Below are positions 3,620 through 6,600 of a stretch of 64,000 nt of DNA, piece after piece (positions within the stretch are counted from its first letter, which is position 1; the number at the start of each line of letters is the position of its first letter). Location: assembly GCF_000026545.1 (NCBI RefSeq), contig NC_011601.1. One strand, 5' to 3'. This DNA comes from Escherichia coli O127:H6 str. E2348/69. Lineage in GTDB: Bacteria; Pseudomonadota; Gammaproteobacteria; Enterobacterales; Enterobacteriaceae. The notes below the pieces were generated by a model, which saw only the letters and a program-made list of their open reading frames with translations, did no database searches and was not told the origin of the DNA. The position numbers were made by a program, and so were the translations under genes.

Positions 3620-6600
3620 TTGAGCCAGGAATACACTGAAGACAAAGAAGTCACATTGACAAAGTTAAGTAGCGGCCGCCGCCTTCTGGAGGCGTTGCTG
3701 ATCCTTATTGTCCTGTTTGCCGTCTGGTTGATGGCTGCCTTACTAAGCTTTAACCCTTCGGACCCCAGCTGGTCGCAAACGGCCTGGCATGAACCTATCC
3801 ATAATTTAGGTGGGATGCCCGGTGCGTGGTTGGCAGATACGCTGTTCTTTATTTTTGGCGTGATGGCTTACACCATTCCCGTCATTATTGTCGGCGGTTG
3901 TTGGTTTGCCTGGCGTCATCAGTCCAGCGACGAATACATTGATTATTTTGCCGTTTCGCTACGCATCATTGGCGTTTTGGCGCTCATCCTTACCTCCTGT
4001 GGTCTGGCGGCAATCAACGCTGACGATATCTGGTATTTTGCCTCCGGTGGCGTCATTGGCAGCTTACTAAGCACTACGCTACAACCACTGCTACACAGTA
4101 GCGGGGGAACTATTGCGCTGCTCTGCGTTTGGGCAGCGGGCCTGACGCTGTTCACCGGTTGGTCATGGGTGACCATTGCTGAAAAACTCGGCGGCTGGAT
4201 TTTAAATATTCTTACCTTCGCCAGTAATCGTACCCGTCGCGATGATACCTGGGTCGATGAAGATGAGTATGAAGACGACGAAGAGTATGAAGATGAAAAT
4301 CACGGCAAACAGCATGAATCACGCCGTGCCCGTATTCTTCGCGGCGCGCTAGCGCGTCGTAAACGGTTGGCGGAAAAATTCATTAATCCGATGGGGCGGC
4401 AAACAGATGCTGCGCTGTTCTCCGGTAAGCGGATGGATGATGAAGAAGAGATTACCTACACTGCACGCGGTGTGGTTGCCGACCCTGACGACGTCCTGTT
4501 TTCGGGCAATCGTGCAACGCAGCCAGAATATGACGAATACGATCCATTATTAAACGGTGCGCCAATTACCGAACCTGTTGCTGTAGCAGCTGCTGCTACC
4601 ACGGCGACACAAAGCTGGGCTGCACCGGTTGAACCTGTGACTCAGACGCCGCCAGTTGCCTCTGTTGATGTTCCACCTACGCAACCTACAGTAGCCTGGC
4701 AGCCTGTACCGGGGCCGCAAACGGGAGAACCAGTTATTGCACCTGCACCGGAAGGTTACCCACAGCAGTCACAATATGCGCAGCCTGCAGTGCAATATAA
4801 TGAGCCGCTGCAACAACCTGTACAGCCACAGCAGCCGTATTATGCGCCTGCAGCTGAACAGCCTGTGCAACAACCTTACTACGCTCCTGCGCCGGAACAG
4901 TCTGCGCAACAGCCGTATTACGCCCCTGCGCCAGAACAACCGGTGGCAGGTAACGCCTGGCAAGCCGAAGAGCAGCAATCCACTTTTGCTCCACAGTCTA
5001 CATACCAGACGGAGCAAACTTATCAGCAGCCAGCTGCTCAGGAGCCGTTGTACCAACAGCCGCAACCCGTTGAACAGCAGCCTGTTGTGGAGCCTGAACC
5101 CGTTGTAGAAGAGACAAAACCCGCGCGTCCGCCGCTTTACTATTTTGAAGAAGTGGAAGAGAAGCGTGCCCGTGAACGTGAACAACTTGCGGCCTGGTAT
5201 CAACCGATTCCAGAACCGGTTAAAGAACCGGAACCGATCAAATCTTCGCTAAAAGCACCTTCTGTTGCAGCAGTACCTCCAGTGGAAGCCGCTGCCGCTG
5301 TTTCTCCGCTGGCATCTGGCGTGAAAAAAGCGACACTGGCGACGGGGGCTGCCGCAACCGTTGCCGCGCCAGTCTTCAGTCTGGCAAATAGCAGTGGACC
5401 GCGTCCGCAGGTCAAAGAGGGGATTGGCCCGCAGTTGCCACGACCGAAACGTATCCGCGTGCCAACTCGTCGTGAACTGGCGTCTTACGGTATTAAGCTG
5501 CCCTCACAGCGTGCGGCAGAAGAAAAAGCCCGTGAAGCCCAGCGTAATCAGTACGATTCTGGCGATCAGTACAACGATGATGAAATCGATGCGATGCAGC
5601 AGGATGAACTGGCACGTCAGTTCGCCCAGACGCAGCAGCAACGCTATGGCGAACAGTATCAACATGATGTACCCGTGAACACAGAAGATGCAGATGCTGC
5701 GGCAGAGGCAGAACTGGCTCGTCAGTTTGCTCAAACTCAACAACAACGTTATTCCGGCGAACAACCGGCTGGGGCGAATCCGTTCTCGCTGGATGATTTT
5801 GAATTTTCGCCAATGAAAGCGTTGCTGGATGATGGTCCACACGAACCGCTGTTTACGCCAATTGTTGAACCTGTACAGCAGCCGCAACAACCGGTAGCAC
5901 CGCAGCAGCAATATCAGCAGCCGCAACAACCGGTTGCACCGCAGCCGCAGTATCAGCAGCCGCAACAACCAGTTGCGCCACAGCCGCAATATCAACAGCC
6001 GCAACAGCCAGTTGCGCCACAACCGCAATATCAACAGCCGCAACAACCGGTAGCACCGCAGCAGCAATATCAGCAGCCACAACAACCGGTTGCACAGCAG
6101 CCGCAGTATCAGCAGCCACAACAGCCGGTTACACAGCAGCCGCAGTATCAGCAGCCGCAACAGCCGGTTGTACCACAGCCGCAGGATACCCTGCTTCATC
6201 CGCTGTTGATGCGTAATGGCGACAGCCGTCCGTTGCATAAACCGACGACGCCACTGCCTTCTCTGGATTTGCTGACACCTCCGCCGAGCGAAGTGGAGCC
6301 GGTAGATACCTTTGCGCTTGAACAAATGGCGCGCTTGGTGGAAGCGCGTCTGGCTGATTTCCGTATTAAAGCCGATGTCGTCAATTATTCTCCGGGGCCA
6401 GTTATCACTCGCTTTGAATTGAACCTGGCACCGGGCGTAAAAGCGGCGCGCATTTCTAACTTGTCACGTGACCTTGCCCGTTCACTTTCGACGGTGGCGG
6501 TGCGTGTCGTTGAAGTTATTCCTGGCAAACCCTATGTAGGTCTGGAGTTACCGAATAAAAAACGACAAACCGTTTATCTGCGCGAAGTTTTGGATAACGC

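Follow-up and report, generated by a model that had tools for sequence, protein, structure and literature searches.

The ftsK gene of Escherichia coli O127:H6 strain E2348/69 carries a run of 39-bp repeats in the linker that joins the membrane domain of FtsK to its motor. The locus raises the question of what this run is, why FtsK differs in length between strains, and whether the number of repeats matters to the protein. A variable, proline/glutamine-rich FtsK linker is textbook material. We analyzed the locus in a window of 64,000 nucleotides (contig NC_011601.1), taking the annotation from RefSeq record NZ_LT827011.1, to which the window is identical, starting at its position 928001; this was established base for base over the first 49 kb. 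The gene encodes the full FtsK domain set (4TM, alpha, FtsK/SpoIIIE ATPase and gamma), and every Pfam match lies above its gathering threshold (Table 1). The linker between the 4TM and alpha domains is of low complexity, with a proline content of 14.8% and a glutamine content of 16.6%. Reviews describe this linker as unstructured, rich in proline and glutamine, variable in length between species and without conserved features, and they assign to the linker regions a part in cell division and in full chromosome dimer resolution.

Table 1. Positions of the features in the window (numbered from its first nucleotide) and in the 1368-residue FtsK protein.
Feature	Position	Strand	FtsK residues	Basis or remark
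ftsK coding sequence, DNA translocase FtsK	3620..7726	+	1-1368	TTG start; ORF list, RefSeq annotation
FtsK_4TM			20-191	Pfam
FtsK linker, membrane domain to alpha domain	4193..6253	+	192-878	Pfam boundaries
Array A, three in-frame 39-bp units, QQPYYAPA(A/P)EQ(P/S)x	4829..4945	+		Repeat search, TRF
Minus-strand ORF, 273 aa	5504..6325	-		ORF list; rejected as a gene
14-residue motif, first copy	5606..5647	+		
14-residue motif, second copy	5711..5752	+		
CVN001 forward primer site, AACCGGCTGGGGCGAATCC	5763..5781	+		Exact match
Array B, eight in-frame 39-bp units, MLVA locus CVN001	5870..6181	+	751-854	TRF, unit table
CVN001 reverse primer site, GGCGGCGGTGTCAGCAAATC	6266..6285	-		One mismatch
FtsK_alpha			879-979	Pfam
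FtsK_SpoIIIE			987-1200	Pfam
FtsK_gamma			1303-1363	Pfam
STnc130, sRNA	11247..11381	-		Rfam
dmsA	11472..13916	+		Annotated pseudogene
ycaC	15445..15988	-		Annotated pseudogene
naRNA4	60331..60409	+		Rfam

A reading made earlier from the DNA letters alone (the sequence-only reading) had placed a 39-bp array of about 7.7 copies in the FtsK linker at 5881-6180. The Pfam matches and the residue composition confirm this placement: the array, which we call array B, lies between the 4TM domain and the motor within proline/glutamine-rich low-complexity sequence, at the far end of the linker and 24 residues ahead of FtsK_alpha. TRF delimits it closely to the earlier estimate, at 5876..6183 with a period of 39, 7.9 copies, 88% matches, no indels and a score of 434. 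Read in codon register, array B consists of eight units, of which units 2-8 take the form QYQQPQQPV(A/T/V)(P/Q)Q(P/Q), and the 13-residue unit reported previously is a cyclic permutation of this one. Units 1 and 5 have their last 30 bases in common. On its own, array B is 27.6% proline and 49.5% glutamine, and from this composition, together with the reviews' description of the linker as unstructured, the segment is probably intrinsically disordered.

Since a stretch so rich in two residues may appear periodic through its composition, we compared the self-identity of array B at a lag of 39 bases, which is 0.87-0.89, with the values obtained after shuffling its codons 10,000 times. The shuffled sequences gave an identity of 0.48 ± 0.03 with a maximum of 0.60, and none of the 10,000 reached the observed value, indicating that the periodicity does not come from the proline/glutamine-rich composition alone. 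A higher-order repeat of four units (156 bp) was also considered. The self-identity over 5876..6183 is 0.895 at a lag of 156 and 0.888 at a lag of 39, a difference too small to support such a repeat, and we rejected it.

We then compared E2348/69 FtsK with that of K-12 MG1655, whose ftsK gene is 3990 nt long and encodes 1329 amino acids. The two alleles are not equally long, and the E2348/69 protein exceeds the K-12 protein by the 39 residues given in the sequence-only reading. Its attribution of all 39 residues to three extra units in array B does not hold. In the protein alignment, a 26-residue gap (two units) falls in array B, which has six units in K-12 and eight in E2348/69, and a 13-residue gap (one unit) falls in array A, an upstream 39-bp array with two units in K-12 and three in E2348/69. 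Nine substitutions distinguish the two proteins besides these gaps. Array A contributes a third of the 39 residues, and differences in FtsK length between strains arise from two independent 39-bp arrays, not one.

Array A corresponds to what had been noted as a second, weaker repeat family of three copies at about 4830..4940, on which TRF (4835..4938, period 39, 2.7 copies) and our repeat search agree. Its lag-39 periodicity also lies above that of every codon shuffle. In a systematic sample of 60 complete E. coli genomes, array A is polymorphic, with two units in 19/60, three units in 20/60, four units in 20/60 and another arrangement in 1/60. The papers that we found do not describe array A as a typing locus. 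Between the two arrays, the linker also contains a 14-residue motif twice, the copies being 35 residues apart. At the DNA level they differ at 8 of 42 sites, every one of them a third-codon position. The pair is kept in E. albertii and E. whittamii and is slightly diverged in Phytobacter. It looks like a constrained peptide motif in a linker that is usually called devoid of conserved features.

To count array B units across E. coli ftsK alleles, as the sequence-only reading had proposed, a 1301-bp query over array B was searched in 5,426 complete E. coli genomes. An ftsK match was obtained in 5,425 of them, and one genome gave no ftsK linker match at all. Matches on plasmid-labelled records were encountered at 10 places in this search and at 8 places in the corresponding search for array A; these matches and the matchless genome could be mislabelled replicons or assembly problems. 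Length classes were assigned in a systematic sample of 60 rows taken down the ranking of the 5,426 genomes. Three of these rows were incompletely covered (two were settled by reading the loci, and H59 was assumed to be like H58), and with these included array B has the same length as in E2348/69 in 5/60 genomes (~8%), one unit fewer in about 29/60 (~48%), two units fewer, as in K-12, in 16/60 (~27%), three units fewer in 2/60, one unit more in 1/60 and seven units fewer in 1/60. In the remaining class, of part-unit variants (5/60), the difference is not a multiple of 39 bp. The classes thus differ mainly by multiples of 39 bp, and the eight-unit allele of E2348/69 is at the long end of the common range.

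Twelve distinct array B alleles read in detail contain from one to nine units and, together with the 60-genome sample, bear out the earlier expectation that the copy number is polymorphic. The shortest array (strain PapRG-04-4) is 42 bp long with one unit, and the longest is 354 bp long with nine. Every one of 13 array B sequences within this range of 42-354 bp has a length that is a multiple of 3, and ftsK is annotated as intact in all of the alleles read in detail, which encode FtsK proteins of 1290-1381 amino acids. PapRG-04-4 is a baboon isolate (NZ_CP049201.1) whose FtsK, at 1290 amino acids, is likewise annotated as intact. If its one-unit allele is real, array B would be almost wholly dispensable.

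When the alleles are written as strings of unit sequence types, related alleles stand single steps apart. What separates those of GN02350, KE51 and SFAD3 is a single 24-bp deletion, with CAGCCG direct repeats at its ends, and the loss of one 39-bp unit. The K-12 and EC554 alleles are two unit insertions apart, WP3-S18 has an internal duplication, and in PCP06022 a 99-bp deletion fuses two units. Part-unit alleles with 15-bp or 57-bp units also exist. Slipped-strand mispairing or unequal exchange would be expected to produce such relationships, and the self-identity at a lag of 156 together with the shared ends of units 1 and 5 hints that the array of E2348/69 itself may have grown in part by multi-unit duplication.

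From these relationships we infer how the array is likely to change. Copy number would shift through slipped-strand mispairing during replication or through unequal recombination between units, and part-unit deletions would occur now and then between shorter internal direct repeats. Because each 39-bp unit is 13 codons long, gaining or losing a unit neither shifts the frame nor disrupts the motor domain downstream. The encoded segment would form part of a flexible spacer with little constraint on its exact length, which is what natural alleles of one to nine units suggest for the FtsK linker and which would allow many length alleles to coexist in E. coli.

Given that the sequence-only reading had suggested array B as a useful strain-typing marker, we asked whether it corresponds to a locus already in use. 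CVN001 is one of the loci typed in the generic E. coli MLVA (Lindstedt et al. 2007; GECM-7/GECM-10), and its primers, its 39-bp repeat and its 250-bp offset are published (PMC8143711). Each CVN001 primer has a single match in the 64-kb window, and the two sites flank array B in the correct orientation. Neither primer had a match in shuffled sequence, of which 100 versions were scanned with the forward primer. In E2348/69 the amplicon (5763..6285) is 523 bp long, and since the published offset then yields an integer, (523-250)/39 = 7.0, this strain carries CVN001 allele 7. The K-12 amplicon is 445 bp long, which is allele 5. Among Swedish ESBL-producing isolates, the frequencies of alleles 4, 5, 6, 7 and 8 are 1%, 40%, 40%, 13% and 5%, respectively (PMC5217547), and both this range and these frequencies resemble what we observed in the sample of complete genomes.

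No paper naming both CVN001 and ftsK was found in the open-access literature, so the identity of CVN001 with the ftsK array is set by primer mapping. It is very unlikely to be wrong, as the primers match the window only here and the repeat is 39 bp long. CVN001 and array B are the same locus, with nothing substantive to tell them apart, and the suggested use as a typing marker proved correct: the locus is an already known one that has been routinely typed since 2007. The part-unit alleles described above would be mis-rounded by MLVA that relies on fragment sizing.

We next considered how far the array is conserved. Sixteen nucleotide positions vary among the 33 distinct full units, 11 of them at the third place of a codon, and the amino acid changes are chiefly swaps between proline and glutamine or fall at the single A/T/V/P position. 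The peptide composition of array B is therefore more conserved than its DNA, and the mostly synonymous variation between units indicates that the peptide is under some constraint and that the array is not simply junk. E. whittamii and two further Escherichia lineages carry array B, with its units homogenised lineage by lineage, and this persistence with lineage-specific units suggests that it is maintained. In E. albertii the array has become degenerate, with part of it replaced by a run of alanines, and its Phytobacter counterpart is PQ-rich and has lost the periodicity. This distribution fits a repeat that may undergo constant turnover and homogenisation in each lineage, with a PQ-rich spacer kept throughout.

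The loci outside E. coli come from a scan of genome contigs, aimed across the Enterobacteriaceae, with a degenerate DNA pattern for a 13-residue flanking peptide. The scan gave only six loci, from Escherichia species and Phytobacter, which indicates that the flanking motif is less conserved at the level of a DNA pattern than we had assumed. No Salmonella ftsK locus was among the six, so the homology of array B with the Salmonella repeat is taken from the literature. There, a 39-bp repeat in ftsK is known as STTR7/SENTR2, with 9.3 copies in S. Enteritidis (PMC2430564), and it has been called the "variable PQ repeat region" of the gene, in which isolates differ by in-frame deletions (PMC8627665, PMC6137255). 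By this description the Salmonella locus, although it belongs to a different genus, resembles array B in its gene, its 39-bp unit, its position in a PQ-repeat linker and its use in MLVA. The tolA repeat of E. coli is a further likeness, being in frame, variable in copy number and located in a flexible spacer of an envelope or division protein; tolA, too, is a Salmonella MLVA locus, SENTR1 (PMC2430564). For E. coli tolA, the repeat number altered stress tolerance in experiments (PMC3477136). No comparable experimental test of ftsK repeat number was present in the literature that we found.

Two other accounts of the array can be set aside with little hesitation. Assembly from short reads can go wrong in a tandem array of 300 bp, so the copy number might have been expanded or collapsed by an assembler, and the one-unit allele of PapRG-04-4 may be such a case. 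For E2348/69, such an error is very unlikely because three independent complete assemblies (NZ_LT827011.1, NZ_LT903847.1 and NZ_CP059840.2) agree in length. These assemblies and those of four other strains are free of gaps over the 1301-bp query at an identity of at least 99.8%, and the same array length recurs in many more genomes. At 308 bp, the array is also shorter than a Sanger read and a typical paired-end insert. The notion that the repeat serves a real gene on the opposite strand can be dismissed with near certainty. The ORF list does contain a 273-aa minus-strand ORF that runs across the array. Its product is monotonous and rich in L and R, the mirror of CAG and CCG codons, it is absent from the annotation of the RefSeq records examined, and its length would shift with each array allele. 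The complements of CAG and CCG are CTG and CGG, which is why the ORF has no stops, and we rejected it as a mechanical by-product of the stop-free repeats.

A weightier alternative is adaptive tuning of the copy number. How many PQ units there are would set the reach of the linker as a tether or its valency in multivalent interactions, and would thereby shift the timing of translocation and chromosome dimer resolution relative to septation, or alter stress tolerance, so that the array is under selection. In favor of tuning are the conservation of the peptide unit beyond that of the DNA, the maintenance of the array in both Escherichia and Salmonella, the requirement reported in the literature for the linker in normal FtsK activity, and the tolA precedent. 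In addition, survival in egg white was different for an S. Enteritidis isolate in which two ftsK repeats were missing, with many other differences also present (PMC6137255). Against it, natural isolates span one to nine units, single-unit differences separate closely related strains, the genome samples show no association with host or pathotype, and the papers that we found ascribe no phenotype to the ftsK array. On balance, we consider tuning improbable. With high confidence, we instead favor the reading that array B is a nearly neutral in-frame minisatellite in the proline/glutamine-rich FtsK linker, the same locus as CVN001, that varies by slippage or unequal recombination. Some observations speak against near-neutrality: the synonymous bias among units implies some constraint on the peptide, the persistence of the array across Escherichia species suggests maintenance, and reviews credit the linker with roles in division and dimer resolution, so that its length may have an effect.

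Elsewhere in the window, codon 589 of the 814 codons of dmsA is an in-frame TAG, and the E2348/69 annotation lists the gene as a pseudogene with an "internal stop". A frameshift near the 5' end of ycaC accompanies its annotation as a pseudogene. Two RNAs, the sRNA STnc130, which lies between serS and dmsA, and the REP-derived nucleoid-associated RNA naRNA4, were matched above their Rfam gathering scores.

Array B is an established typing locus, and beyond such bookkeeping it matters little; what is added here is an explicit placement of CVN001 in the linker region of ftsK. If repeat number does affect FtsK, the natural alleles of one to nine units would provide a ready allelic series in which linker length could be set against the coupling of translocation to septation.
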